Assembly: GCF_009931435.1 (NCBI RefSeq) | Contig: NZ_CP043414.1 | Length of the DNA stretch: 64,000 nt | Source of the DNA: Escherichia coli | GTDB taxonomy: Bacteria > Pseudomonadota > Gammaproteobacteria > Enterobacterales > Enterobacteriaceae | Direction: 5' to 3' (one strand) | Shown here: piece after piece, positions 5,913 to 40,503 of the stretch | Layout: each line of letters starts with the position of its first letter | Position numbering within the stretch: the first letter of the stretch is position 1 | Notes under the pieces: generated by a model | The model's input: only the letters and a program-made list of their open reading frames with translations | Database searches by the model: none | What the model was told of the DNA's origin: nothing | Program-made: the position numbers and the translations under genes

Positions 5913-5914
5913 CT

Positions 5915-6345
5915 TACTTGCTGTTCTGAAGGTTGTTAACCATCAGTAAATTGTTGCCGGAGGGACTCCGGTTATTATTTACCTCGGTTAACAGCGCACC
6001 AGAAACAATAAGTACGATACAGAAGTACCGTATCTTCATTGTGCGGTCCATGCGAAGACCGCATCACGACAGCACCACTGGCGATATTGCCGCGATAGCA
6101 AGCGCTGTGGGGTGCCTGCATTTACGGTCATGGAACATCCTTTCCTAAAGCCAGCGCCCGTTTGCGAGACGGCGAAAAGGGCCGTCACGAATAATACTCT
6201 CATATTTGAATAATTACTCTATTTATTATCTTGACTTGGCCAGGCATAAAAGAGAGTATTTCAACACTGTGGGGTGCCTGCGTTGCTCCGGCAACACAAG
6301 TCAACCTGCTGGAAAGGCCGCGAACCAGACCAGCAATAAAAAACC
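5915..6345. ncRNA. ryfA: ryfA small-RNA locus (approximate bounds, strand not resolved)
   Basis: Non-coding ~0.45 kb gap between sseB and sseA where I recall ryfA lying in E. coli; bounded by hairpins at 5888-5912 and 6347-6372; exact ends not determinable from sequence alone. Confidence 0.3.
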
Positions 6346-6346
6346 G

Positions 6347-6372
6347 CCAAATTCGGCGGTTTTTTATTGCCT
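6347..6372. terminator. Bidirectional rho-independent terminator (aaaaaaccgccaaattcggcggttttttatt)
   Basis: GC stem flanked by A-run and T-run, 10 nt downstream of the sseA stop on the minus strand. Confidence 0.65.
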
Positions 6373-6381
6373 GTAAAAAGC

Positions 6382-7227
6382 TTATTTCAATGGCTCAACC
6401 GGTAAATCTGCCCGTGCGCCCCATTCACTCCATGCGCCGTCGTACAGTTTCACGTTTGGCACATCCAGCGTCGCGAGTGCCAACAAAACCACGGCTGCCG
6501 TTACACCAGAACCGCAGCTGACGATAATTGGTTTGTCGTAGCTGACACCGCGACCAAAAAATATCGCATCCAGTTCATCGGTCGTTTTTAGTTCGCCTTC
6601 ACGGACCAGTTCCGTCCACGGAACGTTCAATGCACCGGGAATATGTCCGCGACGTAAACCTGGGCGAGGTTCATCAACTTCTGCGTTAAAACGTGTAGCC
6701 GGGCGGGCATCAATAATTTGCGCCGTATTTTCATGGCTTGCCAATAATACATCGGTTACTTTCACCACGGCTTCAGGATTAAACGCGGCGTTAAACTCTC
6801 CTTCCGGCAGCTCTACTGCGCCTTCTTCTAATAGCAGATCATCACGCTGCCAGCCTGCAAGTCCACCACCCAGAATCGACACTTTCTCTACACCAAAGGT
6901 GCGCAGCATCCACCATGCGCGTGGGGCTGAGAAAAGATTACCTTCGTCATAGACAATCAGGTGCTTATCCTGGTTAACGCCTAACTCACGCATCGCCACG
7001 GCGAACGTTTCCGGGCGCGGCAGCATGTGCGGAAGCGGGGAAGTGTGATCAGAAAGCGCTTCGATATCGAAAAACACTGCGCCGGGAATATGTCCATTCA
7101 GATACTCCTGGGCAACGTTACGATCTTCCTGTCCAGGCGGTGCCATGCGGGCATCGATAATCTGAATTTCCGGGTCATCAATATGTTCGGCGAGCCAGTC
7201 GGCTCCTACAAACCATGTCGTGGACAT
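6382..7227 (-). CDS. sseA: 3-mercaptopyruvate sulfurtransferase (tandem rhodanese)
   Basis: ORF 6382-7239; internal ATG gives MSTTWFVGADW... (281 aa); rhodanese active-site loop CGSGVTA. Confidence 0.9.
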   Translation of the reverse strand: MSTTWFVGADWLAEHIDDPEIQIIDARMAPPGQEDRNVAQEYLNGHIPGAVFFDIEALSDHTSPLPHMLPRPETFAVAMRELGVNQDKHLIVYDEGNLFSAPRAWWMLRTFGVEKVSILGGGLAGWQRDDLLLEEGAVELPEGEFNAAFNPEAVVKVTDVLLASHENTAQIIDARPATRFNAEVDEPRPGLRRGHIPGALNVPWTELVREGELKTTDELDAIFFGRGVSYDKPIIVSCGSGVTAAVVLLALATLDVPNVKLYDGAWSEWGARADLPVEPLK

Positions 7228-7432
7228 AGGCATCTCCATTTTTGCCGGGTTAGGCTAAATTGTCGGATGTTTAGTGAAAAGCGACAAGCAAAAGAGGCTG
7301 ATTTGGCTGTCTGAGCCACAATTCTCACTAAAATTCGGATTCCATGGGCGCGATACTGAATTACATAACGTAAATTCTCACGCATAATAATTATTCGACG
7401 TTGCTAACGGGCCATTGTGGCAGGGATGAAAA

Positions 7433-10400
7433 ATGAAAAAGTTACGCGTAGCCGCCTGCATGCTAATGCTGGCGCTGGCAGGGTGCGACAACGACAACAA
7501 CGATAACGCGCCAACAGCGGTGAAAAAAGATGCACCTTCTGAAGTTACTAAAGCGGCATCTTCAGAAAACGCGAGTTCAGCAAAACTCTCTGCACCGGAG
7601 CGACAAAAACTGGCACAACAGAGTGCCGGTAAGGCGCTGACATTGCTGGATCTCTCTGAAGTCCAACTCGATGGCGCAGCCACGCTGGTGCTGACCTTCT
7701 CTATCCCTCTCGACCCGGATCAGGATTTCTCGCGCGTTATTCACGTCGTTGATAAAAAAAGCGGCAAAGTGGATGGGGCCTGGGAGCTGTCAGATAATCT
7801 TAAAGAGCTGCGTTTACGCCACCTCGAGCCGAAACGTGATTTGATCGTTACTATTGGCAAGGAGGTCAAGGCACTCAACAACGCAACCTTCAGTAAAGAT
7901 TACGAAAAAACTATAACTACCCGCGATATCCAGCCCAGCGTCGGTTTTGCCAGCCGTGGTTCGCTGCTGCCTGGAAAAGTCATTGAAGGGCTGCCGGTAA
8001 TGGCGCTCAATGTTAACAATGTCGATGTTAACTTCTTCCGTGTTAAGCCAGAATCTCTGCCAGCATTTATTAGCCAATGGGAATACCGAAATTCGCTGGC
8101 GAACTGGCAGTCAGACAAACTGCTGCAAATGGCGGATCTGGTTTATACCGGACGTTTTGATCTCAATCCTGCGCGTAACACCCGTGAAAAATTATTGCTG
8201 CCGCTGGGTGATATCAAACCGCTTCAGCAGGCGGGTGTGTATCTGGCTGTGATGAATCAGGCTGGACGTTACGATTACAGTAATCCCGCGACGCTGTTTA
8301 CATTAAGTGATATCGGCGTATCGGCCCACCGTTATCACAATCGTCTGGATATCTTTACCCAAAGCCTGGAAAACGGCGCGGCCCAGCAAGGAGTTGAAGT
8401 CTCATTATTAAATGAGAAAGGGCAGACTCTGACTCAGGCAACCAGTGATGCCCAGGGGCATGTGCAGCTGGAAAATGATAAAAACGCGGCATTACTGTTG
8501 GCGCGTAAAGACGGTCAGACAACGCTACTCGATTTAAAACTTCCGGCGCTGGACTTAGCAGAATTTAACATTGCTGGCGCGCCAGGCTATAACAAACAGT
8601 TTTTCATGTTTGGCCCGCGCGATCTTTATCGCCCGGGTGAAACAGTCATCCTTAATGGTTTATTGCGTGATGCAGACGGTAAAGCGTTGCCCGATCAACC
8701 CATCAAGCTGGACGTAATTAAACCCGACGGGCAGGTACTCAGGAGCGTCGTTAGTCAGCCGGAGAATGGCCTCTATCACTTTACGTGGCCACTCGATAGT
8801 AATGCGGCCACCGGCATGTGGCATATCCGAGCCAATACGGGCGATAACCAGTATCGGATGTGGGATTTCCACGTCGAAGATTTTATGCCAGAGCGTATGG
8901 CGCTGAATCTGACCGGTGAGAAAACCCCGCTAACGCCGAAAGATGAAGTGAAATTCTCCGTGGTGGGTTACTACCTGTACGGGGCGCCTGCTAATGGTAA
9001 TACTTTGCAAGGGCAACTTTTCCTGCGCCCACTGCGTGAAGCTGTGTCAGCCTTACCTGGTTTCGAATTCGGCGATATAGCTGCTGAAAACCTTTCGCGC
9101 ACGCTGGATGAAGTTCAGTTGACGCTGGATGATAAAGGGCGCGGCGAAGTTTCTACAGAAAGCCAGTGGAAGGAAACGCATTCCCCATTACAGGTTATTT
9201 TCCAGGGCAGTTTGCTGGAGTCTGGCGGTCGCCCGGTGACGCGCCGTGCTGAGCAGGCTATCTGGCCTGCCGATGCATTGCCGGGGATCCGTCCGCAATT
9301 CGCCTCGAAATCGGTTTACGATTATCGCACTGACAGTACGGTAAAACAGCCCATTGTTGATGAAGGCAGTAACGCCGCTTTCGACATCGTTTATAGCGAT
9401 GCACAGGGCGTCAAAAAAGCTGTGTCTGGCTTACAAGTGCGCCTGATTCGCGAACGCCGCGATTACTACTGGAACTGGTCAGAAGATGAAGGCTGGCAGT
9501 CACAGTTTGATCAAAAAGATCTGATCGAAAATGAACAAACACTGGATCTTCAGGCTGATGAAACCGGTAAAGTCAGTTTCCCGGTAGAGTGGGGCGCTTA
9601 TCGTCTGGAAGTCAAAGCGCCGAATGAAGCGGTCAGTAGTGTGCGTTTCTGGGCTGGCTATAGCTGGCAGGACAATAGCGACGGTAGCGGTGCTGTGCGA
9701 CCAGACCGTGTCACGCTGAAACTGGATAAAGCCAGTTATCGCCCTGGTGATACCATTAAGTTGCACATTGCCGCACCAACGGCGGGTAAAGGCTATGCGA
9801 TGGTCGAGTCCAGTGAAGGGCCGCTGTGGTGGCAGGAGATTGATGTTCCGGCACAAGGGCTGGATCTGACGATTCCGGTCGATAAAACCTGGAATCGTCA
9901 TGATCTTTATTTAAGTACGCTGGTGGTACGTCCTGGCGATAAATCTCGCTCCGCGACGCCAAAACGCGCAGTTGGCGTGTTGCATTTGCCGCTTGGCGAT
10001 GAAAACCGTCGTCTCGATCTGGCGCTGGAAACTCCAGCGAAAATACGCCCCAATCAGCCATTAACCGTGAAAATTAAAGCCAGCAATAAAAATGGTGAGA
10101 TGCCAAAACAGGTGAATGTGCTGGTGTCTGCGGTTGATAGCGGTGTGTTGAATATTACTGATTATGTCACGCCAGATCCGTGGCAGGCATTCTTTGGTCA
10201 GAAACGCTATGGCGCAGATATTTACGATATTTACGGTCAGGTCATTGAAGGTCAGGGGCGTCTGGCAGCTCTGCGTTTTGGTGGCGATGGTGATGAACTG
10301 AAACGCGGTGGTAAACCGCCAGTAAATCACGTCAATATTGTTGCGCAACAGGCGCTACCGGTAACACTCAACGAACAGGGCGAAGGCACGGTTACATTGC

Positions 10401-12400
10401 CGATTGGTGATTTTAACGGTGAATTGCGCGTCATGGCACAAGCATGGACGGCAGATGATTTCGGTAGCAACGAAAGCAAAGTGGTTGTTGCCGCACCGGT
10501 GATAGCAGAACTGAATATGCCGCGCTTTATGGCCAGCGGTGACACCTCACGTCTGACGCTGGATATCACTAATCTTACCGATAAACCGCAAAAACTGAAC
10601 GTTGCTCTGACCGCCAGTGGCTTGCTTGAACTGGTTAGCGATTCACCCGCAGCCGTTGAATTAGCGCCGGGCGTGCGAACCACGCTGTTTATCCCGGTGC
10701 GAGCATTGCCGGGTTATGGTGATGGTGAAATTCAGGCCACTATTAGCGGGTTAGCGTTACCGGGCGAAACCGCTGCCGATCAGCATAAGCAGTGGAAAAT
10801 GGGTGTCCGTCCGGCATTTCCGGCACAAACCGTCAATTACGGTACGGCGTTGCAGCCTGGTGAGACATGGGCGATTCCAGCTGATGGATTGCAAAACTTC
10901 TCGCCTGTTACGCTGGAAGGGCAATTGTTGTTGAGCGGCAAACCACCGTTGAATATTGCACGTTATATCAAAGAGTTAAAAGCGTATCCGTACGGTTGTC
11001 TGGAGCAAACCGCCAGCGGCCTGTTCCCGTCACTTTACACCAACGCAGCCCAACTGCAGGCGTTGGGAATCAAAGGCGACAGTGATGAGAAGCGCCGTAC
11101 GGCAGTCGATATCGGCATTTCTCGTTTACTGCAAATGCAACGTGATAACGGTGGCTTTGCGCTGTGGGATAAAAACGGTGATGAAGAGTACTGGCTGACG
11201 GCTTACGTGATGGATTTTCTGGTCCGCGCAGGTGAGCAGGGTTACAGCGTGCCGACAGAAGCCATTAACCGGGGGAATGAGCGTCTACTGCGCTATTTAC
11301 AAGATCCGGGCATGATGTCGATTCCGTATGCGGATAATCTCAAAGCCAGTAAATTCGCCGTACAGTCTTACGCTGCGCTGGTGCTGGCCCGTCAGCAAAA
11401 GGCACCGCTGGGTGCGCTGCGTGAAATCTGGGAGCATCGTGCCGATGCTGCGTCTGGATTACCGCTGCTGCAACTTGGCGTTGCGCTGAAAACCATGGGC
11501 GATGCAACGCGTGGTGAAGAAGCGATTGTGCTGGCGCTGAAAACGCCGCGCAATAGTGATGAGCGGATATGGCTGGGTGATTACGGAAGTCCACTGCGCG
11601 ACAACGCATTGATGCTCTCCTTGCTGGAAGAGAACAAATTGCTACCCGATGAGCAGTACCCTCTGCTGAACACACTTTCGCAGCAGGCGTTCGGTGAACG
11701 CTGGTTATCAACTCAGGAAAGTAACGCGCTGTTCCTGGCTGCCCGTACGATTCAGGATTTACCGGGCAAATGGCAGGCGCAAACGTCTTTCTCTGCTGAG
11801 CTGCTGACAGGTGAGAAAGCGCAAACCAGCAATCTGAATAGCGATCAACTTGCCACCTTACAGGTGACCAACAGTGGCGATCAGCCGTTATGGCTGCGTG
11901 TGGATGCCAGCGGATATCCGCAATCCGCCCCTTTACCGGCGAGCAATGTGCTGCAAATCGAGCGCCATATTCTTGGCACTGACGGTAAGAGCAAATCGCT
12001 GGATTCGTTACGTAGCGGCGATCTGGTACTGGTCTGGTTGCAGGTCAAAGCCAGTAACAGCGTGCCGGATGCTTTGGTCGTTGATTTACTGCCTGCTGGC
12101 CTGGAACTGGAAAACCAGAACCTGGCTAACGGCAGCGCCAGCCTGGAGCAAAGTGGTAGCGAAGTGCAAAACCTACTCAGTCAAATGCAACAAGCGAACA
12201 TTAAGCATATTGAGTTTCGTGACGATCGCTTTGTGGCGGCGGTTGCCGTTGATGAATATCAACCAGTCACGCTGGTGTATCTGGCGCGGGCGGTAACGCC
12301 GGGAACATACAATGTTCCGCAACCAATGGTGGAATCGATGTATGTTCCCCACTGGCGGGCGACTGGCGCGGCTGAAGATCTGTTGATTGTCAGACCGTAA
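7433..12400 (+). CDS. yfhM: Alpha-2-macroglobulin family lipoprotein YfhM (ECAM)
   Basis: 1655-aa ORF; lipoprotein signal with lipobox LAGC; intact thioester motif CLEQ (YPYGCLEQTASG, ~10997-11008); stop directly abuts pbpC start. Confidence 0.9.
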   Translation: MKKLRVAACMLMLALAGCDNDNNDNAPTAVKKDAPSEVTKAASSENASSAKLSAPERQKLAQQSAGKALTLLDLSEVQLDGAATLVLTFSIPLDPDQDFSRVIHVVDKKSGKVDGAWELSDNLKELRLRHLEPKRDLIVTIGKEVKALNNATFSKDYEKTITTRDIQPSVGFASRGSLLPGKVIEGLPVMALNVNNVDVNFFRVKPESLPAFISQWEYRNSLANWQSDKLLQMADLVYTGRFDLNPARNTREKLLLPLGDIKPLQQAGVYLAVMNQAGRYDYSNPATLFTLSDIGVSAHRYHNRLDIFTQSLENGAAQQGVEVSLLNEKGQTLTQATSDAQGHVQLENDKNAALLLARKDGQTTLLDLKLPALDLAEFNIAGAPGYNKQFFMFGPRDLYRPGETVILNGLLRDADGKALPDQPIKLDVIKPDGQVLRSVVSQPENGLYHFTWPLDSNAATGMWHIRANTGDNQYRMWDFHVEDFMPERMALNLTGEKTPLTPKDEVKFSVVGYYLYGAPANGNTLQGQLFLRPLREAVSALPGFEFGDIAAENLSRTLDEVQLTLDDKGRGEVSTESQWKETHSPLQVIFQGSLLESGGRPVTRRAEQAIWPADALPGIRPQFASKSVYDYRTDSTVKQPIVDEGSNAAFDIVYSDAQGVKKAVSGLQVRLIRERRDYYWNWSEDEGWQSQFDQKDLIENEQTLDLQADETGKVSFPVEWGAYRLEVKAPNEAVSSVRFWAGYSWQDNSDGSGAVRPDRVTLKLDKASYRPGDTIKLHIAAPTAGKGYAMVESSEGPLWWQEIDVPAQGLDLTIPVDKTWNRHDLYLSTLVVRPGDKSRSATPKRAVGVLHLPLGDENRRLDLALETPAKIRPNQPLTVKIKASNKNGEMPKQVNVLVSAVDSGVLNITDYVTPDPWQAFFGQKRYGADIYDIYGQVIEGQGRLAALRFGGDGDELKRGGKPPVNHVNIVAQQALPVTLNEQGEGTVTLPIGDFNGELRVMAQAWTADDFGSNESKVVVAAPVIAELNMPRFMASGDTSRLTLDITNLTDKPQKLNVALTASGLLELVSDSPAAVELAPGVRTTLFIPVRALPGYGDGEIQATISGLALPGETAADQHKQWKMGVRPAFPAQTVNYGTALQPGETWAIPADGLQNFSPVTLEGQLLLSGKPPLNIARYIKELKAYPYGCLEQTASGLFPSLYTNAAQLQALGIKGDSDEKRRTAVDIGISRLLQMQRDNGGFALWDKNGDEEYWLTAYVMDFLVRAGEQGYSVPTEAINRGNERLLRYLQDPGMMSIPYADNLKASKFAVQSYAALVLARQQKAPLGALREIWEHRADAASGLPLLQLGVALKTMGDATRGEEAIVLALKTPRNSDERIWLGDYGSPLRDNALMLSLLEENKLLPDEQYPLLNTLSQQAFGERWLSTQESNALFLAARTIQDLPGKWQAQTSFSAELLTGEKAQTSNLNSDQLATLQVTNSGDQPLWLRVDASGYPQSAPLPASNVLQIERHILGTDGKSKSLDSLRSGDLVLVWLQVKASNSVPDALVVDLLPAGLELENQNLANGSASLEQSGSEVQNLLSQMQQANIKHIEFRDDRFVAAVAVDEYQPVTLVYLARAVTPGTYNVPQPMVESMYVPHWRATGAAEDLLIVRP

Positions 12401-14713
12401 ATGCCTCGCCTGTTAACCAAACGCGGCTGCTGGATAGCGCTGGCAGCTGCGCCTTTTCTCCTTTTTTTTGCCGCGTGGGGAGCAGATAAACTCTGGCCCC
12501 TGCCATTGCATGAAGTCAATCCCGCACGCGTAGTCGTGGCGCAGGATGGTACGCCACTCTGGCGTTTCGCCGATGCTGAGGGCATCTGGCGCTATCCGGT
12601 AACCATCGAAGATGTCTCTCCGCGTTACCTTGAAGCACTGATCAATTATGAAGATCGCTGGTTCTGGAAGCATCCGGGGGTGAATCCATTCTCGGTGGCG
12701 CGCGCAGCATGGCAAGATCTCACTTCGGGACGGGTTATTTCCGGCGGCAGCACACTCACCATGCAGGTTGCTCGTCTGCTTGATCCTCACCCCAAAACTT
12801 TTGGCGGCAAAATTCGCCAGCTCTGGCGCGCGTTTCAACTGGAATGGCACTTGTCTAAACGTGACATTCTGACCTTGTATCTTAATCGCGCTCCGTTTGG
12901 TGGTACGTTGCAGGGGATCGGTGCGGCAAGTTGGGCATATCTCGGAAAATCGCCTGCGAATTTAAGCTATTCCGAGGCGGCAATGCTGGCGGTGTTACCA
13001 CAAGCGCCCAGCCGACTGCGTCCGGATCGCTGGCCGGAACGTGCCGAGGCCGCACGTAATAAAGTGCTCAATCGGATGGCTGCGCAAGGTGTGTGGTCCC
13101 GTGAGCAGGTAAAAGAATCTAGTGAAGAGCCCATCTGGTTGGCACCCAGACAAATGCCGCAACTGGCACCGCTGTTTTCGCGCATGATGCTCGGTAAAAG
13201 CAAAAGCGACAAAATCGTTACTACGCTGGATGCTGGTTTACAGCGTCGTCTGGAAGAACTGGCGCAAAACTGGAAAGGACGATTGCCACCGCGCAGTTCG
13301 TTGGCAATGATCGTTGTTGATCATACTGATATGAGTGTGCGCGGCTGGATAGGATCGGTTGATCTTAATGATGATTCCCGCTTTGGGCATGTCGATATGG
13401 TCAATGCGATCCGATCGCCGGGATCGGTACTCAAACCGTTTGTTTATGGTCTGGCGCTGGATGAAGGCTTGATCCACCCTGCATCGCTGTTGCAAGACGT
13501 TCCCCGGCGCACTGGTGATTATCGACCAGGCAACTTTGACAGCGGTTTTCATGGCCCGATCAGCATGAGTGAGGCGCTGGTGCGCTCGCTGAATTTACCT
13601 GCTGTGCAGGTGCTGGAAGCCTATGGACCGAAACGGTTTGCGGCAAAGTTACGCAATGTTGGATTGCCGTTATATTTGCCCAACGGTGCTGCACCGAATC
13701 TTTCGCTCATTCTCGGCGGCGCAGGTGCAAAACTGGAGGATATGGCTGCAGCGTATACCGCATTTGCTCGCCACGGTAAGGCGGGTAAGTTGCGCTTACA
13801 GCCGGGGGACCCATTACTTGAGCGACCGTTAATGTCGCCGGGGGCCGCGTGGATTATCCGCCGTATTATGGCAGATGAAGCGCAGCCGCTTCCGGATGGC
13901 GCTTTGCCACGCGTCGTACCACTGGCGTGGAAAACAGGAACCAGTTATGGCTATCGCGATGCATGGGCTATTGGCGTTAACGCTCGTTACGTAATTGGGA
14001 TCTGGACTGGCAGACCGGACGGTACGCCCGTTGTCGGTCAGTTTGGCTTTGCCAGCGCCGTACCGCTGTTGAATCAGGTCAATAATATCTTACTGTCGCG
14101 CAGTGCGAATCTGCCGGAAGACCCGCGTCCTGATTCTGTAAGCCGTGGCGTTATCTGCTGGCCTGGTGGGCAATCATTGCCAGAAGGCGATAGCAATTGC
14201 CGCCGTCGTCTTGCCACCTGGCTGCTCGAAGATAGCCAGCCACCAACATTACTTTTACCGGAGCAAGAAGGAATAAGTGGGATTCGTTTCCCCATCTGGC
14301 TTGATGAGCAAGGCAAACGTGTTGCCGCTGATTGTCCTCAGGCTCGACAAGAAATGATTAATGTCTGGCCATTACCACTTGAACCCTGGCTACCTGCTGC
14401 TGAACGACGAGCAGCGCGCTTACCTGGGGCATCAACAAATTGCCCGCCGTATGGTCGTGATGCTCAGGTACCTTTACAGTTGATTGGTGTGCGTGATGGC
14501 GTAATTATCAAACGTCTGCCAGGAGCTACTGATGCGTCATTACCAGTACAATTAAGCGGAGGAACAGGCGAACGCTGGTGGTTTCTTAATGGTGAACCGT
14601 TAGCTGAACGCGGGCGTAACGTGACTCTGCATTTGACAGAGAAAGGCGATTATCAATTGCTGGTAATGGACGAAATGGGGCAGGTGGCGACAGTGAGATT
14701 TGTCATGCAGTAG
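12401..14713 (+). CDS. pbpC: Penicillin-binding protein 1C (bifunctional glycosyltransferase/transpeptidase)
   Basis: 770-aa ORF starting immediately after the yfhM stop; N-terminal TM segment; glycosyltransferase region RFWKHPGVNP and SXXK-type transpeptidase region. Confidence 0.9.
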   Translation: MPRLLTKRGCWIALAAAPFLLFFAAWGADKLWPLPLHEVNPARVVVAQDGTPLWRFADAEGIWRYPVTIEDVSPRYLEALINYEDRWFWKHPGVNPFSVARAAWQDLTSGRVISGGSTLTMQVARLLDPHPKTFGGKIRQLWRAFQLEWHLSKRDILTLYLNRAPFGGTLQGIGAASWAYLGKSPANLSYSEAAMLAVLPQAPSRLRPDRWPERAEAARNKVLNRMAAQGVWSREQVKESSEEPIWLAPRQMPQLAPLFSRMMLGKSKSDKIVTTLDAGLQRRLEELAQNWKGRLPPRSSLAMIVVDHTDMSVRGWIGSVDLNDDSRFGHVDMVNAIRSPGSVLKPFVYGLALDEGLIHPASLLQDVPRRTGDYRPGNFDSGFHGPISMSEALVRSLNLPAVQVLEAYGPKRFAAKLRNVGLPLYLPNGAAPNLSLILGGAGAKLEDMAAAYTAFARHGKAGKLRLQPGDPLLERPLMSPGAAWIIRRIMADEAQPLPDGALPRVVPLAWKTGTSYGYRDAWAIGVNARYVIGIWTGRPDGTPVVGQFGFASAVPLLNQVNNILLSRSANLPEDPRPDSVSRGVICWPGGQSLPEGDSNCRRRLATWLLEDSQPPTLLLPEQEGISGIRFPIWLDEQGKRVAADCPQARQEMINVWPLPLEPWLPAAERRAARLPGASTNCPPYGRDAQVPLQLIGVRDGVIIKRLPGATDASLPVQLSGGTGERWWFLNGEPLAERGRNVTLHLTEKGDYQLLVMDEMGQVATVRFVMQ

Positions 14714-15442: not shown

Positions 15443-16597
15443 ATGTCTGAACAATTAGTCACACCTGAAAACGTCACCACGAAAGATGGAAAAATCAACC
15501 TGCTGGATCTCAACCGTCAGCAGATGCGGGAGTTTTTTAAAGATTTAGGTGAAAAACCCTTCCGCGCCGATCAGGTGATGAAGTGGATGTATCACTATTG
15601 CTGCGACAACTTTGATGAGATGACCGACATCAACAAAGTGTTGCGCGGTAAACTAAAAGAGGTGGCGGAAATCCGCGCACCGGAAGTGGTTGAAGAACAG
15701 CGTTCATCTGACGGCACCATTAAATGGGCGATTGCCGTTGGCGATCAGCGCGTCGAAACGGTGTATATCCCGGAAGACGACCGTGCCACGCTTTGCGTTT
15801 CCTCGCAGGTGGGGTGTGCGCTGGAGTGTAAATTCTGTTCCACCGCCCAGCAGGGCTTTAACCGCAATCTGCGGGTGTCGGAAATTATCGGCCAGGTGTG
15901 GCGTGCAGCGAAAATCGTTGGCGCAGCAAAAGTCACCGGTCAGCGCCCAATCACTAACGTAGTGATGATGGGTATGGGCGAGCCGCTGCTCAACCTGAAC
16001 AACGTCGTTCCGGCGATGGAAATCATGCTCGATGATTTCGGTTTTGGTCTGTCTAAACGTCGCGTTACGCTCTCTACATCAGGCGTTGTTCCGGCGCTGG
16101 ATAAACTGGGCGATATGATCGACGTAGCGCTGGCAATTTCCCTGCATGCGCCGAACGACGAAATTCGTGACGAAATTGTGCCGATCAACAAAAAGTACAA
16201 TATCGAAACGTTCCTTGCTGCGGTGCGCCGCTATCTGGAGAAATCTAACGCCAATCAGGGCCGAGTCACTATTGAATACGTGATGCTTGATCACGTTAAC
16301 GACGGCACTGAACACGCGCACCAACTGGCGGAGCTGCTGAAAGATACGCCGTGTAAGATCAACCTGATCCCGTGGAACCCGTTCCCTGGCGCGCCGTATG
16401 GACGCAGCTCAAACAGTCGTATCGACCGTTTCTCTAAAGTGCTGATGAGCTACGGTTTCACCACTATTGTGCGTAAAACTCGTGGTGATGATATCGATGC
16501 TGCCTGTGGTCAGTTGGCGGGCGATGTTATCGACCGTACGAAACGTACCCTGCGTAAACGAATGCAGGGTGAGGCCATCGACATTAAAGCGGTCTGA
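15443..16597 (+). CDS. rlmN: Dual-specificity rRNA/tRNA adenosine C2 methyltransferase RlmN (radical SAM)
   Basis: 384-aa ORF; radical-SAM cysteine motif [14 protein letters not shown]. Confidence 0.95.
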
Positions 16598-16603
16598 TAG
16601 CCA

Positions 16604-16645
16604 TTACGCCACGGTTACTTTATGTACCGTGGCGTAATCTTTTAT
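16604..16645 (+). terminator. rlmN rho-independent terminator (ttacgccacggt ... accgtggcgtaa then tctttt)
   Basis: Perfect 12-bp inverted repeat 7 nt after rlmN stop followed by a T-run. Confidence 0.6.
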
Positions 16646-16881
16646 GAATGAAGTATTAAGTTGCAATTGTCTGGTCAATATTAACGGTGCGTTTTTGCTG
16701 ACTTTAAGGCAGTATGTAACGATGCAACAGTAAGTTAGCCTTAGTGAATGTGGGCTTTGTCACGAGCACACAGACGGTCTTATACTGTATGATAACGGTT
16801 AACTTAACGGATGTTTCGCGGTGTGGGTGAGCATGATGGTTCACCGGCATCTCAATTCTCATTTAAACGTACCTGCAGCGA

Positions 16882-17895
16882 ATGAATACTGAAGCCACGC
16901 ACGACCAAAATGAAGCACTTACTACCGGCGCTCGCCTGCGTAATGCTCGCGAACAACTAGGACTTAGTCAGCAGGCCGTTGCTGAGCGACTTTGCCTGAA
17001 GGTTTCCACGGTACGCGACATTGAAGAAGATAAGGCACCTGCCGATCTTGCTTCAACATTCCTGCGCGGATATATCCGCTCTTATGCGCGTCTGGTACAT
17101 ATTCCAGAAGAAGAACTGCTACCGGGGCTGGAAAAACAGGCTCCACTACGAGCTGCAAAAGTTGCGCCGATGCAGAGTTTTTCCCTCGGTAAACGCCGCA
17201 AAAAACGTGACGGCTGGCTGATGACCTTCACCTGGCTGGTGTTGTTTGTGGTTATTGGCCTGAGCGGTGCCTGGTGGTGGCAAGACCACAAAGCTCAGCA
17301 GGAAGAGATCACTACTATGGCCGATCAATCTTCTGCGGAACTGAGCAGTAATAACGAACAGGGGCAGAGTGTTCCGTTAGATACGTCGACAACCACAGAC
17401 CCGACTACGACGTCCACGCCGCCAGCGTCTGTGGATACTACCGCAACTAACACGCAAACACCTGCCATAACTTCGCCAGCACCAGCTGTTGATTCACAAC
17501 AGAATGCAGTTGTTTCACCTTCGCAGGCAAATGTTGATACCGCTGCGACCCCGGCACCAACGGCAACAACAACGCCAGATGGTGCTGCGCCGTTGCCAAC
17601 CGATCAGGCTGGCGTGACCACGCCGGCGGCTGACCCGAATGCGTTGGTGATGAACTTTACTGCCGATTGCTGGCTGGAAGTCACTGACGCTACCGGTAAA
17701 AAACTGTTTAGCGGTATGCAGCGTAAAGACGGTAATTTGAACTTAACCGGCCAGGCTCCGTACAAACTGAAAATTGGTGCGCCAGCCGCAGTACAGATCC
17801 AGTATCAAGGGAAACCTGTCGATCTGAGTCGTTTTATCAGAACTAACCAGGTTGCGCGTCTGACCCTAAATGCCGAACAATCACCGGCGCAGTAA
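16882..17895 (+). CDS. rodZ: Cytoskeleton protein RodZ (HTH-TM-periplasmic domain)
   Basis: 337-aa ORF; N-terminal HTH ([12 protein letters not shown]), single [24 protein letters not shown], Pro/Thr/Ala-rich linker. Confidence 0.9.
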
Positions 17896-17921
17896 CAGAC
17901 GGGTAACGCGGGAGATTTTTC

Positions 17922-19040
17922 ATGCATAACCAGGCTCCAATTCAACGTAGAAAATCAACACGTATTTACGTTGGGAATGTGCCGATTGGCGATGGTGCCC
18001 CCATCGCCGTACAGTCCATGACCAATACGCGTACGACAGACGTCGAAGCTACGGTCAATCAAATTAAGGCGCTGGAACGTGTTGGCGCTGATATCGTCCG
18101 TGTCTCCGTACCGACGATGGACGCGGCAGAAGCGTTCAAGCTCATCAAACAACAGGTTAACGTGCCGCTGGTGGCTGACATCCACTTCGACTATCGCATT
18201 GCGCTGAAAGTAGCGGAATACGGCGTCGATTGTCTGCGTATTAACCCTGGCAATATCGGCAATGAAGAACGCATCCGCATGGTGGTTGACTGTGCGCGCG
18301 ATAAAAACATTCCGATCCGTATTGGCGTTAACGCTGGATCGCTGGAAAAAGATCTGCAAGAAAAGTATGGCGAACCGACGCCGCAGGCGTTGCTGGAATC
18401 TGCCATGCGTCATGTTGATCATCTCGATCGCCTGAACTTCGATCAGTTCAAAGTCAGCGTGAAAGCGTCTGACGTCTTCCTCGCTGTTGAGTCTTATCGT
18501 TTGCTGGCAAAACAGATCGATCAACCGCTGCATCTTGGGATCACCGAAGCGGGTGGCGCACGTAGTGGGGCAGTAAAATCTGCCATTGGTTTAGGCCTGC
18601 TGCTGTCTGAAGGCATCGGCGACACGCTGCGCGTATCGCTGGCGGCCGATCCGGTCGAAGAGATCAAAGTCGGTTTCGATATTTTGAAATCGCTGCGTAT
18701 CCGTTCGCGCGGGATCAACTTCATCGCCTGCCCGACCTGTTCGCGTCAGGAGTTTGACGTTATCGGTACGGTTAACGCCCTGGAGCAACGCCTGGAAGAT
18801 ATCATCACCCCGATGGACGTTTCGATTATCGGCTGCGTGGTGAATGGACCAGGTGAGGCGCTGGTTTCTACACTCGGCGTCACCGGCGGCAACAAGAAAA
18901 GCGGCCTCTATGAAGATGGCGTGCGCAAAGACCGTCTGGACAACAACGATATGATCGACCAGCTGGAAGCGCGCATTCGTGCGAAAGCCAGCCAACTGGA
19001 TGAAGCGCGTCGAATTGACGTTCAGCAGGTTGAAAAATAA
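17922..19040 (+). CDS. ispG: 4-hydroxy-3-methylbut-2-enyl diphosphate synthase IspG (GcpE)
   Basis: 372-aa [31 protein letters not shown]...; conserved CPTCSR cysteine region. Confidence 0.95.
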
Positions 19041-24326: not shown

Positions 24327-26519
24327 ATGTCACAGGGGATGTGCATGCTGCGATGGAAACGCTGTATTATGCTAACATTTATCTCTGGAGCTGCTTTTGC
24401 GGCTCCAGAGATAAATGTTGAGCATAAAGAATCGTTACCTGATTTAGGTAGTCAGGCCGCACAACAGGAAGAGCAAACTAACAAGGGTAAATCGCTAAAA
24501 GAGCGTGGTGCCGATTACGTCATTAACTCTGCCACGCAAGGGTTTGAAAACCTCACACCCGAGGCGCTGGAGTCCCAGGCCAGAAGCTATCTGCAAAGTC
24601 AAATTACCTCTACGACACAATCTTATATTGAGGATACACTCTCCCCCTACGGTAAGGTCCGAACGAATCTTTCTCTTGGTCAGGGCGGCGATCTGGATGG
24701 CAGTTCCATCGACTATTTTGTTCCCTGGTATGATAATCAAACTACTGTTTATTTCAGCCAATTTTCTGCACAACGAAAAGAAGATCGTACGATCGGGAAT
24801 ATTGGGCTTGGTGTAAGACATAATTTTGATAGATGGTTATTGGGTGGAAATATATTTTATGATTATGATTTTACCCGTGGGCATCGCCGTTTAGGTTTAG
24901 GTGCCGAAGCCTGGACTGATTATTTAAAATTCTCTGGCAACTATTATCATCCGCTTTCTGACTGGAAAGACTCCGAAGATTTCGATTTTTATGAGGAGCG
25001 TCCTGCGCGCGGTTGGGATATTCGCGCCGAAGCCTGGCTACCTGCTTACCCGCAGCTTGGCGGTAAAATCGTTTTCGAACAGTATTACGGTGATGAAGTC
25101 GCGCTTTTTGGCACCGATAATCTGGAGAAAGATCCCTTCGCCGTCACGCTGGGTGTGAAATACCAGCCCGTACCGCTCATTGCCGTAGGAACGGATTTCA
25201 AAGCCGGCACTGGCGATAATACCGATCTTTCTGTTAACGCAACGCTGAACTACCAGTTTGGCGTCTCGCTCAAAGACCAGCTTGATCCTGACAAAGTAAG
25301 CGCGGCTCACTCGCTCATGGGCAGCCGTCACGACTTTGTTGAACGTAACAACTTTATTGTTCTGGAATACAAAGAGAAAGATCCCCTCGATGTCACTTTG
25401 TGGCTGAAAGCTGATGCGACGAATGAACATCCCGAGTGCGTGATTAAAGATACGCCAGAAGCAGCCATCGGGCTGGAAAAATGTAAGTGGACCATTAACG
25501 CGCTCATTAATCATCATTACAAAATCGTTGCTGCCTCCTGGCAGGCGAAAAACAATGCTGCACGTACGCTGGTGATGCCGGTTATCAAAGAAAATACGCT
25601 TACCGAAGGGAACAACAATCACTGGAATCTGGTGCTGCCTGCCTGGCAGTACAGCTCTGATAAAGCCGACCAGGAAAAACTCAATACCTGGCGGGTACGC
25701 CTGGCGCTGGAAGATGAAAAAGGCAATCGGCAGAACTCCGGCGTGGTGGAAATTACCGTTCAGCAGGACCGTAAAATTGAGCTCATTGTTAACAACATCG
25801 CCAATGTACCGGATGAGAACAATCACAGCCACGAAGCCAGCGCGCAAGCGGATGGTGTAGATGGTGTCGTCATGGATCTCGACGTTACCGATAGCTTTGG
25901 CGACAACACTGACCGTAACGGTAATGTCTTGCCGCAGGATAATCTCAGCCCGCAGCTGTTTGATGCCAACGATAAAAAAGTGACGCTGACGAATAAACCC
26001 TGCACCACCGAAGTGCCGTGCGTTTTTATCGTCAAACAAGATAAAGAAAAGGGGACCGTTACGCTCTCCAGTACGTTGCCCGGCACTTTCCGCTGGAAGG
26101 CGAAAGCCGCCCCTTATGATGACAGTAACTATGTTGACGTAACGTTCCTGGGTTCTGACATCGGCGGGCTGAATGCTTTTATCTACCGCGTTGGTGCAGC
26201 TAAGCCCGTCAATCTTATCGGCAACAAAGAACCGTTGCCTCTCAATAGCCGCTATCGCTTTGTGCTGTGGCGCGACGCTAACAAAGACGGCGTGTTCCAG
26301 CTTTCTGAGAAGCTCACTGACGATGAGATGAAACAGTATGACTATCAGTGGGAATTCACGGGGCATAGCGTAAATGGCAATACCGGTGCGCAAACCAATA
26401 CCACGAACGTCGATATAGAGATCCCGGCAACCAACAAGGAAGCGGCAGCAAAGTTTAGTGCCCAGGTAACCGATGGCGTGCAGGGATACGGTTTGCAGGT
26501 CAATTACAGCAAGAAATAG
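24327..26519 (+). CDS. sinH: Intimin/invasin-family outer-membrane protein (inverse autotransporter), SinH-like
   Basis: 730-aa ORF; signal-like N-terminus (alternative start at 24345, MLRWKRCIMLTFISGAAFA); central inverse-autotransporter-type beta-barrel region; located between yfgJ and xseA as in the Salmonella CS54-type island (from memory). Confidence 0.7.
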   Translation: MSQGMCMLRWKRCIMLTFISGAAFAAPEINVEHKESLPDLGSQAAQQEEQTNKGKSLKERGADYVINSATQGFENLTPEALESQARSYLQSQITSTTQSYIEDTLSPYGKVRTNLSLGQGGDLDGSSIDYFVPWYDNQTTVYFSQFSAQRKEDRTIGNIGLGVRHNFDRWLLGGNIFYDYDFTRGHRRLGLGAEAWTDYLKFSGNYYHPLSDWKDSEDFDFYEERPARGWDIRAEAWLPAYPQLGGKIVFEQYYGDEVALFGTDNLEKDPFAVTLGVKYQPVPLIAVGTDFKAGTGDNTDLSVNATLNYQFGVSLKDQLDPDKVSAAHSLMGSRHDFVERNNFIVLEYKEKDPLDVTLWLKADATNEHPECVIKDTPEAAIGLEKCKWTINALINHHYKIVAASWQAKNNAARTLVMPVIKENTLTEGNNNHWNLVLPAWQYSSDKADQEKLNTWRVRLALEDEKGNRQNSGVVEITVQQDRKIELIVNNIANVPDENNHSHEASAQADGVDGVVMDLDVTDSFGDNTDRNGNVLPQDNLSPQLFDANDKKVTLTNKPCTTEVPCVFIVKQDKEKGTVTLSSTLPGTFRWKAKAAPYDDSNYVDVTFLGSDIGGLNAFIYRVGAAKPVNLIGNKEPLPLNSRYRFVLWRDANKDGVFQLSEKLTDDEMKQYDYQWEFTGHSVNGNTGAQTNTTNVDIEIPATNKEAAAKFSAQVTDGVQGYGLQVNYSKK

Positions 26520-26574
26520 GGTCGGCGCCATGGCTGATCGGGCCACCGCTGAATATTAATCAAGGAGAGTGTTT

Positions 26575-27567
26575 ATGAAACCTGATATGAAACGTGGCCT
26601 GACAAAAGTCGCGCTCGCGTTGATGCTGGCTGGATACTGTGCCGTACCAGCCGCTATGGCGGAAGATGCCGCCTGGGTCGCCAGTGGAGCGACCGCTGAA
26701 TTCGAAGGGACTATACCCTGGCTCTATCGCGAAGGGGGGAATGCCACGATTAACTCGGAAGATGCGGATCACATTAAAGTGACGTCTGATGGTAAAGGGA
26801 CCCGCCCTGCAGGTAGCGAGACGGATAAACGCCTTTACTCAGGGGATACCATCACGCTGGGATGGGATATCGGCGATACCGAAGGGGATGTTGATGATGG
26901 TCCCGCAGGCATTGATGCGAAAACGACGGCCACTATCAAATGGTACAGCTACAGCAATAATGCGGGTGGCGATAAAACGGAGCTGACCGCAGCGGCAGGC
27001 AAGACGAGTTATAAACTCACTGATGACGATCGTGGGCGTTATATCGGTGTTGAAATCCAGCCCATCACCCAGACCGGTAATCCCTTCGAGGGAACGTCGC
27101 TGACTCTGCTGGATATTTCAACGGCCAGCGGTGGCGGCAGCGATACGGACAATGTCGATCCCGGCCCGGTTGTGAACCAGAATCTGAAAGTTGCCATCTT
27201 CGAGAAAGGCACCACTACCAACCTTATCGGTGGTAACACGGCCATTGCGCTTAATAAAACGTATGTGGCCAAACTGTACTCGGATGAAAACCAGAACGAT
27301 AAATACGACGCAGGTACGGATATGGACGTTACCGCTAACTATGACTTTGCATGGGTCTTTAACGGTAACAGTAAACAACTTGCTGCGGCGGGCGGTATTG
27401 CTAATGCCAGCTTCGATAACAATGACATTGTTATCCCGCAAACTAACGAAGAAGCAAGAACCAGCCTTAATGGTAGTGACCGTAATGGTAAGAGTGGTCT
27501 TGCGATCCCGGCAAACGGCGACGGCGTTCAGGGCTATACGCTGTCTATCATTTACAAACACCACTAA
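26575..27567 (+). CDS. sinI: Secreted SinI-like protein, homologous to the SinH C-terminal module
   Basis: ORF 26569-27567; ATG at 26575 preceded by aaggag RBS; signal peptide MKPDMKRGLTKVALALMLAGYCAVPAAMA; C-terminal DGVQGYTLSIIYKHH parallels SinH C-terminal DGVQGYGLQVNYSKK. Confidence 0.65.
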   Translation: MKPDMKRGLTKVALALMLAGYCAVPAAMAEDAAWVASGATAEFEGTIPWLYREGGNATINSEDADHIKVTSDGKGTRPAGSETDKRLYSGDTITLGWDIGDTEGDVDDGPAGIDAKTTATIKWYSYSNNAGGDKTELTAAAGKTSYKLTDDDRGRYIGVEIQPITQTGNPFEGTSLTLLDISTASGGGSDTDNVDPGPVVNQNLKVAIFEKGTTTNLIGGNTAIALNKTYVAKLYSDENQNDKYDAGTDMDVTANYDFAWVFNGNSKQLAAAGGIANASFDNNDIVIPQTNEEARTSLNGSDRNGKSGLAIPANGDGVQGYTLSIIYKHH

Positions 27568-27576
27568 TGCGCACAA

Positions 27577-27606
27577 CAGCATTCCCATATGGGAATGCTG
27601 TTTTCC
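27577..27606 (+). terminator. Hairpin plus T-tract after sinI (cagcattcccatatgggaatgctg then ttttcc)
   Basis: Perfect palindrome 10 nt after sinI stop, followed by a T-run; a second long palindrome follows at 27608-27642. Confidence 0.5.
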
Positions 27607-27676
27607 GCCTGTTTTGCTTAGCGACGCGTTAAGCAAAACAGGTTGATGTTTTGTTTATCATGCTGGAGTTTTCTAC

Positions 27677-37345: not shown

Positions 37346-38812
37346 ATGCTACGTATCGCTAAAGAAGCTCTGACGTTTGACGACGTTCTCCTCGTTCCTG
37401 CACATTCTACCGTTCTGCCGAATACCGCTGACCTCAGCACCCAGCTGACGAAAACTATTCGTCTGAATATCCCTATGCTCTCCGCAGCAATGGATACCGT
37501 AACGGAAGCGCGCCTGGCTATCGCCCTGGCTCAGGAAGGCGGTATCGGCTTTATCCACAAAAACATGTCCATTGAACGCCAGGCTGAAGAAGTTCGCCGC
37601 GTGAAAAAACACGAATCTGGCGTGGTAACCGATCCGCAGACTGTTCTGCCGACAACCACCCTGCGTGAAGTGAAAGAACTGACCGAGCGTAACGGCTTTG
37701 CAGGCTATCCGGTAGTTACCGAAGAAAACGAACTGGTCGGCATCATCACCGGTCGTGACGTGCGTTTTGTTACCGACCTGAACCAGCCGGTCAGCGTTTA
37801 CATGACGCCGAAAGAGCGTCTGGTAACCGTGCGTGAAGGCGAAGCCCGTGAAGTTGTGCTGGCAAAAATGCACGAAAAACGCGTTGAAAAAGCGCTGGTG
37901 GTTGATGATGAATTCCACCTGATCGGCATGATCACTGTGAAGGACTTCCAGAAAGCGGAGCGTAAACCGAACGCCTGTAAAGACGAGCAAGGCCGTCTGC
38001 GTGTTGGTGCAGCGGTTGGTGCAGGTGCGGGTAACGAAGAGCGTGTTGATGCGCTGGTTGCCGCAGGCGTTGACGTTCTGCTGATCGACTCCTCTCACGG
38101 TCACTCTGAAGGCGTTCTGCAGCGTATCCGTGAAACTCGCGCTAAATATCCTGATCTGCAAATCATCGGCGGCAACGTGGCAACAGCTGCAGGTGCCCGC
38201 GCGCTGGCAGAAGCCGGTTGCAGTGCCGTTAAAGTGGGTATCGGCCCTGGTTCTATTTGTACTACCCGCATTGTTACTGGCGTCGGTGTTCCGCAGATCA
38301 CCGCCGTTGCTGACGCAGTAGAAGCCCTGGAAGGCACCGGGATTCCGGTTATCGCAGACGGTGGTATTCGTTTCTCTGGCGATATCGCGAAAGCTATCGC
38401 TGCTGGTGCAAGCGCGGTGATGGTAGGCTCCATGCTGGCGGGTACTGAAGAATCCCCGGGTGAAATCGAACTCTACCAGGGCCGTTCTTACAAGTCTTAC
38501 CGTGGGATGGGCTCTCTGGGCGCGATGTCCAAAGGTTCTTCTGACCGTTACTTCCAGAGCGACAACGCTGCCGACAAACTGGTGCCGGAAGGTATCGAAG
38601 GCCGTGTAGCCTACAAAGGTCGTCTGAAAGAGATCATTCACCAGCAGATGGGCGGCCTGCGCTCCTGTATGGGCCTGACCGGCTGTGGTACTATCGACGA
38701 ACTGCGTACTAAAGCGGAGTTTGTACGTATCAGCGGTGCGGGCATTCAGGAAAGCCACGTTCACGACGTGACCATTACTAAAGAGTCCCCGAACTACCGT
38801 CTGGGCTCCTGA
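37346..38812 (+). CDS. guaB: IMP dehydrogenase
   Basis: ORF 37277-38812; ATG at 37346 gives [16 protein letters not shown]... (488 aa); catalytic Cys loop [11 protein letters not shown]. Confidence 0.97.
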
Positions 38813-38880
38813 TTCTCTTCGCCCGACTTCATGTCGGGCGATTTATATTATCTGTTTCACTTGCCTCGGAATAAGCGTCA

Positions 38881-40458: not shown

Positions 40459-40503
40459 GACTGGCTATAAATAGTAAATTAAGCCTTTCCAACTAACTTT
40501 AAT

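Follow-up and report, generated by a model that had tools for sequence, protein, structure and literature searches.

The CLEQ thioester motif of the alpha-2-macroglobulin YfhM in an Escherichia coli genome: a conserved and already annotated site

Introduction

The question raised by this locus is whether a CLEQ tetrapeptide, encoded in a 64-kb stretch of Escherichia coli DNA (the window), is the reactive thioester site of an alpha-2-macroglobulin (A2M), and whether its presence predicts a working protease trap. The site is almost certainly the thioester motif of YfhM (ECAM), a periplasmic, inner-membrane-anchored A2M, in a complete and conserved allele. The CLEQ site of YfhM was correctly recognized, and it is an ordinary, already annotated site that adds nothing new. 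Structural and biochemical work since 2008–2015 has already characterized YfhM/ECAM together with its CLEQ thioester and its mode of activation, and has included a structure of cleaved ECAM in which roles were assigned to Cys1187/Gln1190, Tyr1183/1185, RDDR and EXMY (PMC4498604).

Results

Bases 10997–11008 of the + strand are tgtctggagcaa, which read tgt ctg gag caa. In frame 1, they are part of the yfhM coding sequence (7433–12400, + strand, 1655 aa and a TAA stop codon), the sole long open reading frame (ORF) over the site. As (10997 − 7433)/3 is exactly 1188, the Cys is residue 1189, and the encoded peptide is Cys1189-Leu-Glu-Gln1192 (K-12 Cys1187-Gln1190) inside AYPYGCLEQTASG. The local peptide around the motif is KELKAYPYGCLEQTASGLFPSLY, as the original prediction had claimed. 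Together with the preceding residues, the motif forms YPYGCLEQ (10985–11008, + strand), which contains the shielding tyrosines Tyr1185 and Tyr1187 (K-12 1183 and 1185). The YfhM protein contains CLEQ once, and translating all 64 kb in six frames gives one CLEQ and four CxEQ. Cysteines occur only at residues 9, 18 and 1189 of YfhM, and therefore the mature protein keeps just two, one lipidated and one in the thioester. An antisense gene was considered as another reading of the site and was rejected, because no opposite-strand ORF of at least 100 aa overlaps CLEQ.

The identification of the gene as the A2M YfhM, part of the same prediction, was confirmed by comparison with known proteins. The protein has 98.0% amino acid identity to E. 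coli K-12 YfhM/ECAM over its full length (94.1% at the nucleotide level), and it is identical to RefSeq WP_032184886.1, named "alpha2-macroglobulin". The NCBIfam scan of YfhM gave zero family matches, so this name was not derived from an NCBIfam HMM. The yfhM-pbpC pair was found in 5425 of 5426 complete E. coli genomes, in which yfhM is annotated. Full-length phmmer matches with E = 0 were obtained to ECAM (PDB 4rtd, 4ziq, 5a42 and 4ziu) and to Salmonella A2M (4u48 and 4u4j), with scores of 3626 bits for ECAM vs 3044 bits for Salmonella A2M. Misalignment of the motif relative to the thioester domain (TED) would have undermined the prediction, and the alignment to ECAM/YfhM was free of it. CLEQ aligned without gaps to K-12 Cys1187-Gln1190, with 40 residues around the motif identical, to the ECAM thioester in 4rtd, 4ziq, 5a42 and 4ziu, and to the Salmonella A2M motif in 4u48. 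The Pfam TED_complement match, on the N-terminal part of the TED (residues 1178–1286; 10964–11290, + strand; 33.8 bits, cut-off 22), includes CLEQ as well.

In total, 11 Pfam domains matched above the gathering cut-off, in the expected order along the ORF: bMG1, A2M_bMG2, bMG3, MG2, bMG5, bMG6, A2M_BRD, A2M, TED_complement, CUB_A2MG and bMG10. At the N-terminus, a lipoprotein signal peptide, MKKLRVAACMLMLALAGC, is predicted at 7433–7486 (+ strand), with the lipobox LAGC at residues 15–18 (7475–7486) followed by D19 at position +2. Lipoproteins with Asp at +2 are retained at the inner membrane, and by the lipobox rule YfhM is predicted to be a membrane-anchored periplasmic protein. ECAM has been described as a membrane-anchored lipoprotein (PMC3328433, PMC4498604). 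Directly after the lipidated Cys, a 6-bp duplication GACAAC-GACAAC (7487–7498, + strand) adds an extra Asp-Asn to the tether (CDNDNNDN vs CDNNDN in K-12). No other length difference separates the protein from that of K-12 (1655 vs 1653 aa).

The predicted protease-cleavable bait region comprises residues 925–965 (K-12 923–963; 10205–10327, + strand), placed by identity to K-12 and by literature boundaries, according to which Arg923-Leu942 is disordered and Phe947-Asn963 rebinds the C-terminal MG domain (PMC4498604). Identity is complete over K-12 residues 915–968 and is then broken by V969A. The C-terminal MG domain carries the RDDR motif at residues 1596–1599 (12218–12229, + strand) and ESMY, the EXMY motif, at residues 1634–1637 (12332–12343, + strand); both are conserved with ECAM and Salmonella A2M (Sa-A2M). 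RDDR has the TED as its contact in the native state and switches to the cleaved bait in the induced state, the Met and Tyr of EXMY close a hydrophobic pocket over the thioester, and Tyr1183 and Tyr1185 (K-12 numbering) shield it (PMC4498604). All three shielding elements, YPYG (YPYGCLEQ from residue 1185), RDDR (from 1596) and ESMY (from 1634), are intact, and YPYGCLEQ, FRDDRF and ESMY are kept across all aligned sequences of the ECAM and Salmonella A2M structures.

The yfhM stop codon TAA occupies 12398–12400, and the ATG of pbpC is at the next base, 12401, in the same orientation. The pbpC gene (12401–14713, + strand) encodes PBP1c of 770 aa, as supported by its ORF, by NCBIfam (equivalog NF008414, 1548.8 bits, cut-off 1121) and by the Pfam domains Transgly, Transpeptidase and BiPBP_C. 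It is the usual operon partner of type I bacterial A2Ms (PMC5764988). The flanking genes are sseA and ndk, as in K-12. A weak candidate promoter-like site, ATTACA-17-CATAAT (7360–7388, + strand; 9/12 matches), lies 45 nt upstream of the yfhM ATG, and it is no better than chance, with eight promoter-like sites found in the region vs 8.0 by shuffle. The counts of the combined promoter and terminator scan equal the shuffle expectation, and the terminator scan gave none between yfhM and pbpC. A hairpin at 12422–12451 lies within pbpC.

Compared with K-12, yfhM has dN 0.009 and dS 0.259 (dN/dS 0.035 over 1654 codons). This ratio at a dS of 0.26 shows that the whole YfhM protein is under long-term purifying selection. 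The differences from the crystallized protein are 33 substitutions and the 2-aa (Asp-Asn) insertion, and none of the substitutions relative to K-12 falls within 30 residues of CLEQ or in the bait, YPYG, RDDR or ESMY. The E. coli lineage to which the stretch belongs is rare and divergent. The rlmN-ispG segment has about 97% identity to 5410 genomes, and the neighborhood is divergent throughout; the 94% nucleotide identity of yfhM is therefore mainly lineage divergence, and a special yfhM allele as its cause was rejected. The dS relative to K-12 climbs along yfhM-pbpC, from ~0.19 at the yfhM 5' end to 0.46 in the last 150 yfhM codons (those of the C-terminal MG domain, the lock of the thioester) and 0.9–1.4 in the last third of pbpC, whereas it is 0.08–0.15 in the flanking housekeeping genes. 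The 3' third of pbpC is only about 82% identical to nearly all other E. coli genomes, and the 3' end of this gene is the sole divergence outlier of the neighborhood.

Discussion

In this work, the identity of the gene, the alignment of the motif, the conservation of its partner elements, the purifying selection and the operon context were shown. Judged from its sequence, the protein is a type I bacterial A2M, with CLEQ, the domains, the bait sequence, the shielding residues, the lipobox and the adjacent pbpC all present. Its closest characterized counterpart is the orthologous ECAM/YfhM of K-12 (b2520; 4rtd, 4ziq, 4ziu, 5a42), which has the same architecture of 13 domains (for type I, ten MG domains, a bait-region domain, a CUB domain and the TED). 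The CLEQ context, bait, lipobox, RDDR and ESMY are identical in both, and the sseA / yfhM-pbpC / ndk neighborhood is shared, whereas the substitutions, the tether insertion and the nucleotide divergence described above hit no known functional element. Sa-A2M of Salmonella enterica (4u48, 4u4j, 4u59) is also type I, aligns over the full length and has CLEQ under the same Tyr-x-Tyr and EXMY lock (PMC4498604, PMC5764988). It is more distant, with 82% identity to ECAM (PMC4498604) and many substitutions in the TED and CUB domains.

On the other hand, the type II bacterial A2Ms, such as MagD of P. aeruginosa (a form also present in E. coli), are periplasmic multi-MG proteins with a protease-trapping bait, but they lack CxEQ, bind proteases non-covalently and belong to a six-gene mag operon (PMC5764988). 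A type II identity was rejected on the presence of CLEQ, the pbpC neighbor and the sseA/ndk flanks; the flanks of yfhM-pbpC contain no mag-like genes. Human A2M, A2ML1, complement C3 and CD109 belong to the same superfamily, with a CxEQ thioester in an alpha-helical TED that is proteolytically exposed. The phmmer matches to human A2M, the C3 beta chain and CD109 were weak but significant (E from 3.6e-6 to 6.2e-4), and the Pfam domains MG2, A2M, A2M_BRD and TED_complement, all above cut-off, are shared with the eukaryotic thioester proteins. ECAM and human A2M are about 12% identical (PMC4498604). The bacterial protein differs from the eukaryotic ones in being a lipid-anchored monomer and in carrying two additional MG domains at its N-terminus. 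Furthermore, human A2M is a tetramer that cages proteases even without covalent linkage, whereas ECAM needs the linkage (PMC7864068, PMC9156758, PMC12939704).

By the mechanism characterized for the orthologue, YfhM would be exported and lipidated at Cys18, and its folded TED would join the thiol of Cys1189 internally to the side-chain carbonyl of Gln1192. In the native state, this bond would be buried by Tyr1185 and Tyr1187 of the TED together with the Met and Tyr of ESMY in the C-terminal MG domain. The trigger would be an endopeptidase that reaches the periplasm and cuts the disordered bait (residues about 925–965). The freed bait segment may then push the TED off the C-terminal MG domain, so that the TED would swing outward by ~36 Å and the exposed thioester could attack a surface lysine of the protease. 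The protease would be covalently tethered, and steric hindrance would bar very large substrates (snap-trap). PBP1c, the peptidoglycan glycosyltransferase encoded by pbpC, is proposed to repair the wall within the same defense. The snap-trap was reportedly described by Garcia-Ferrer et al. 2015, whose conclusions are given in later papers (PMC7864068, PMC9156758, PMC12939704). In this allele, bond formation, protease capture and the physiological role would be those of the characterized ECAM, by analogy. For ECAM, methylamine, elastase and chymotrypsin cause a conformational change (PMC3328433), and thioester-based protease conjugation has been demonstrated for the K-12 and BL21 proteins (PMC3328433, PMC4498604, PMC9918453). 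E. coli A2M also serves as a covalent protease-capture reagent (PMC9918453).

The motif had been taken to predict a functional protease-trap protein, and this claim is supported, with two qualifications. A thioester requires CxEQ but is not guaranteed by it, so the motif alone does not carry the prediction. The thioester inference is strong here because the shielding residues, the bait and the whole fold are conserved under strong purifying selection, and no sequence evidence contrary to the thioester reading was found. The word trap is also apt only in the sense of a covalent snap-trap and not of a closed cage (PMC7864068, PMC9156758, PMC12939704). ECAM is a monomer that requires covalent trapping (PMC7864068), it must bind the protease covalently and hinders its action on very large substrates only (PMC7864068, PMC9156758, PMC12939704), and from a bound protease only substrates of at least 160 kDa are kept out (PMC9156758).

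It is quite unlikely that the thioester is real but serves a physiological use other than protease defense, for example in tagging a different molecule of the envelope or the host covalently or in a cell-wall function linked to PBP1c, and that protease capture is seen mainly in vitro. Periplasmic defense by ECAM and PBP1c is still a postulate or hypothesis in vivo (PMC4498604, PMC5764988), trapped proteases stay active on all but very large substrates (PMC9156758), and a search of the yfhM literature since 2015 found no in vivo phenotype study and nothing altering the picture. However, a disordered cleavable bait coupled to thioester exposure is the defining logic of A2Ms and is fully conserved here, and ECAM has been found again and again to bind several proteases covalently (PMC3328433, PMC4498604, PMC9918453). 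Moreover, such a use bears on the physiology and not on the identity or chemistry of the site.

An intact motif in an impaired allele, with a destabilized or over-stabilized thioester, or in a silent gene, is very improbable. The 33 substitutions and the Asp-Asn insertion could be cited for it, as could Q1625N and Q1638H (K-12 numbering), which flank the ESMY lock at sites where both K-12 and Salmonella have Gln, and the scan yielded no convincing promoter. Against this, the dN/dS is very low over the whole gene, the key motifs, the bait and the 30 residues on either side of CLEQ are free of substitutions, and the ORF is complete with its signal peptide and lipobox. Sa-A2M is far more divergent (PMC4498604), yet its thioester has been seen crystallographically. 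A chance tetrapeptide unrelated to any thioester domain has a negligible probability, its only point being the shortness of the motif, and is ruled out because CLEQ matches the thioester of the solved ECAM and Sa-A2M structures column for column and lies within the Pfam TED match, while the YfhM composition gives an expectation of 0.001 CLEQ (0.009 CxEQ) per 1655 aa.

Apart from the identity of the thioester site, the rise in dS along yfhM-pbpC could mark an old foreign import covering the PBP1c C-terminal domain in pbpC and perhaps the yfhM 3' end, so that the A2M lock domain and the C-terminal domain of PBP1c would have been exchanged together, but we regard this as unlikely. If true, the joint exchange would be a hint that these two domains are coupled physically or functionally.

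The finding matters little beyond correct annotation of the site as the CLEQ thioester of YfhM. Strong purifying selection has preserved the complete A2M-PBP1c periplasmic module even in an Escherichia lineage as divergent as this one, and this conservation, read from the genes, is consistent with the module having a real physiological role, as has been hypothesized.

Thioester motif and gene identity

The bases tgt ctg gag caa were read at 10997-11008, within yfhM (7433-12400, + strand), a 1655-codon ORF that is the sole long ORF covering this site; on the opposite strand, no overlapping ORF of at least 100 aa was found there. Since (10997-7433)/3 is exactly 1188, the four codons correspond to Cys1189-Leu-Glu-Gln1192, which sits within the peptide ...KELKAYPYGCLEQTASGLFPSLY..., and the in-frame translation thus agreed with the peptide quoted in the original prediction of an intact thioester motif. 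CLEQ occurs exactly once in YfhM, where the chance expectation in 1655 residues of the protein's own composition is 0.001 for CLEQ and 0.009 for CxEQ. Across all six reading frames of the whole 64 kb, CxEQ occurs just four times and CLEQ once. In a global alignment with YfhM of E. coli K-12, 1621 of 1654 aligned residues were identical (98.0%), with 33 substitutions and one 2-residue insertion. K-12 residues 1187-1190 align with CLEQ, the 40 surrounding residues are identical, and the PDB sequences of the crystallised K-12 protein (ECAM) and of the Salmonella enterica alpha-2-macroglobulin (Sa-A2M) align in the same register. A misalignment of the motif relative to the thioester domain (TED), the refuting outcome that the original prediction had itself named, was tested and not found, as the register is shared with K-12, ECAM, and Sa-A2M.

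The DNA at 7300-12500 was matched in 5425 of 5426 complete E. coli genomes, in one chromosomal place annotated as "yfhM: alpha2-macroglobulin" and "pbpC". The yfhM of the closest genome is one synonymous base apart, and its protein (WP_032184886.1) is identical. YfhM gave full-length matches (E = 0) to ECAM 4rtd, 4ziq, and 5a42 with the fragments 4ziu, 4zjg, and 4zjh, and to the Salmonella structures 4u48 and 4u4j. Human A2M, the C3 beta chain, and CD109 gave weak yet significant matches; at the level of detectable sequence homology, YfhM belongs to the A2M/C3 superfamily. The Pfam families bMG1, A2M_bMG2, bMG3, MG2, bMG5, bMG6, A2M_BRD, A2M, TED_complement (residues 1178-1286), CUB_A2MG, and bMG10, all above gathering thresholds, make up the whole bacterial A2M architecture. 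NCBIfam release 20 assigned no family to YfhM (1655 aa, 7433-12397), while PbpC alongside was identified by its equivalog NF008414 and by Pfam. For a protein universally conserved in E. coli, the absent match is a gap in the library and not a property of the gene.

The pbpC ATG at 12401 is the base directly after the yfhM TAA, and in genomes the type I bacterial A2Ms, which contain the thioester, are recognised by having pbpC next to them (PMC5764988). All six of the type I defining features tested at the level of sequence and context were found. YfhM is therefore a member, indeed an orthologue, of the type I family, and not of the MagD-like type II, which lacks CxEQ and lies in a mag operon. 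The thioester site is already known and is nothing new; with 98% identity to solved structures, the question of its identity was already settled.

At 12422-12451 (+ strand), 22 nt inside the pbpC start and just past the yfhM stop, there is a hairpin whose 12-bp stem has 8 G-C pairs, with CCTTTTCTCC after it. It was flagged by a terminator-like scan whose total count was near the shuffle expectation, and it could be due to chance or could be an attenuating structure between yfhM and pbpC. The promoter scan returned no more sites than the chance level.

Conservation of the trap elements and predicted membrane anchoring

In ECAM, the thioester bond is shielded by Tyr1183 and Tyr1185 (YPYG), and two lock motifs are described in the C-terminal macroglobulin-type (MG) domain, namely RDDR and EXMY, the latter through its Met and Tyr (PMC4498604). 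The shielding tyrosines (residues 1185 and 1187), RDDR (1596-1599), and ESMY (1634-1637) are all intact in YfhM, and K-12 residues 915-968, spanning the bait region Arg923-Asn963, are identical. CLEQ with 30 residues to either side, the bait region, and the named motifs are free of substitutions relative to K-12. The closest changes of note, Q1625N and Q1638H in K-12 numbering (residue 1627, 12311-12313, and residue 1640, 12350-12352), lie on either side of the ESMY lock, where K-12 ECAM and Salmonella A2M both have Gln. In yfhM, 249 codons differ synonymously and 33 non-synonymously from the K-12 gene (94.1% DNA and 98.0% protein identity), which gives a dN of 0.009, a dS of 0.259, and a dN/dS of 0.035.

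The N-terminus of YfhM is a lipoprotein signal peptide with the lipobox LAGC and Asp at +2. According to the Lol-avoidance rule, Asp at +2 leads to inner-membrane retention, which is thus predicted for YfhM. ECAM has likewise been described as a periplasmic lipoprotein anchored in the membrane (PMC3328433, PMC4498604). Cysteines occur only at positions 9, 18, and 1189, and therefore mature YfhM has just the lipidated and the thioester Cys. A tandem GACAAC-GACAAC at 7487-7498 gives CDNDNNDN from the lipobox Cys onwards, compared with CDNNDN in K-12. The resulting Asp-Asn insertion, the sole length difference from K-12, arises from the duplicated hexamer and makes the flexible membrane tether 2 residues longer.

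Lineage divergence and possible recombination

Only 14-18 of 5426 complete "E. coli" genomes match the window at 99% or more (tested at 7300-12500, 13751-14713, and 15443-19040), among them strains 2020CK-00188 (human rectal swab, USA) and R32_14_1F (goat). Against nearly all remaining genomes, identity is 96-97% for the rlmN-rodZ-ispG block and 90-95% for yfhM; for housekeeping genes it is about 97%. The lineage, filed as E. coli, is rare and divergent, and is possibly a cryptic Escherichia clade. Over its last 963 bp (13751-14713), pbpC is only 80-90% identical to 5405 of 5424 genomes (81-83% in sampled matches), with 18 genomes at 95% or more. The dS relative to K-12, computed in 150-codon windows along yfhM-pbpC, is about 0.19 at the yfhM start, 0.19-0.36 over most of the gene, and 0.46 in its last 150 codons (11939-12400, C-terminal MG domain). 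In pbpC it reaches 0.93-1.37 in the last third, where dN/dS is still near 0.05, vs. 0.25-0.36 in the remainder; neighbouring genes have 0.08-0.18. This dS pattern suggests that the 3' end of the operon received foreign sequence through an old recombination event.

Strain 2020CK-00188 differs from the window at three positions over 1-20500 and diverges from about 37650 (guaB-guaA region), with many mismatches at third-codon spacing over about 37650-40460. The position-by-position comparison then loses register and ends with 17,715 mismatches overall, which points to an indel further on. The window's strain and 2020CK-00188 thus seem to be separated by a recombination boundary here.

Other loci

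About 11.5 kb between der/yfgJ and xseA (24327-35761, +) are absent from K-12, where xseA adjoins yfgJ. This island encodes the inverse autotransporter SinH with an IAT_beta domain (24327-26519, +), a SinI-family protein (26569-27567, +), and a 2694-aa adhesin with nine BIg21/adhesion-domain repeats (27677-35761, +), and resembles the Salmonella CS54/ExPEC sinH locus. TimP, a 41-aa small toxic inner-membrane protein (MKIRYFCIVLIVSGALLTEVNNNRSPSGNNLLMVNNLQNSK), lies at 5914-6039 (-), as annotated in a near-identical genome and in K-12, whose annotation there includes the ryfA and timR sRNAs. The stretch 6039-6538 around it is among the less conserved (89.6% vs. K-12).

Proposed mechanism and physiological role

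From the literature, we infer that the ECAM mechanism would apply to this allele. Bait-region cleavage would free a disordered segment that takes the place of the TED on the C-terminal MG domain; the TED would shift by about 36 A, and the thioester, its hydrophobic cover gone, would react with the attacking protease or water (PMC4498604). Methylamine, elastase, or chymotrypsin cause a conformational change in ECAM (PMC3328433). For the monomeric ECAM, covalent conjugation is required for inhibition (PMC7864068), only very large substrates (at least 160 kDa) are shut out (PMC9156758), and its mode of action has been named a bacterial "snap-trap" (PMC12939704). The chemistry of E. coli A2M is robust enough for a covalent protease-capture reagent (PMC9918453). 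The coupling of periplasmic protease defence to peptidoglycan repair by PBP1c, the pbpC product, is still termed a hypothesis (PMC4498604, PMC5764988), and no later in vivo test of this defence model was found in the literature on yfhM. The original reading of YfhM as a functional protease trap is supported, with two qualifications: CxEQ is necessary and not sufficient, and the word "trap" stands for a covalent tether combined with steric hindrance rather than for a closed cage. The case for YfhM function is supported by the whole set of conserved parts together with purifying selection.
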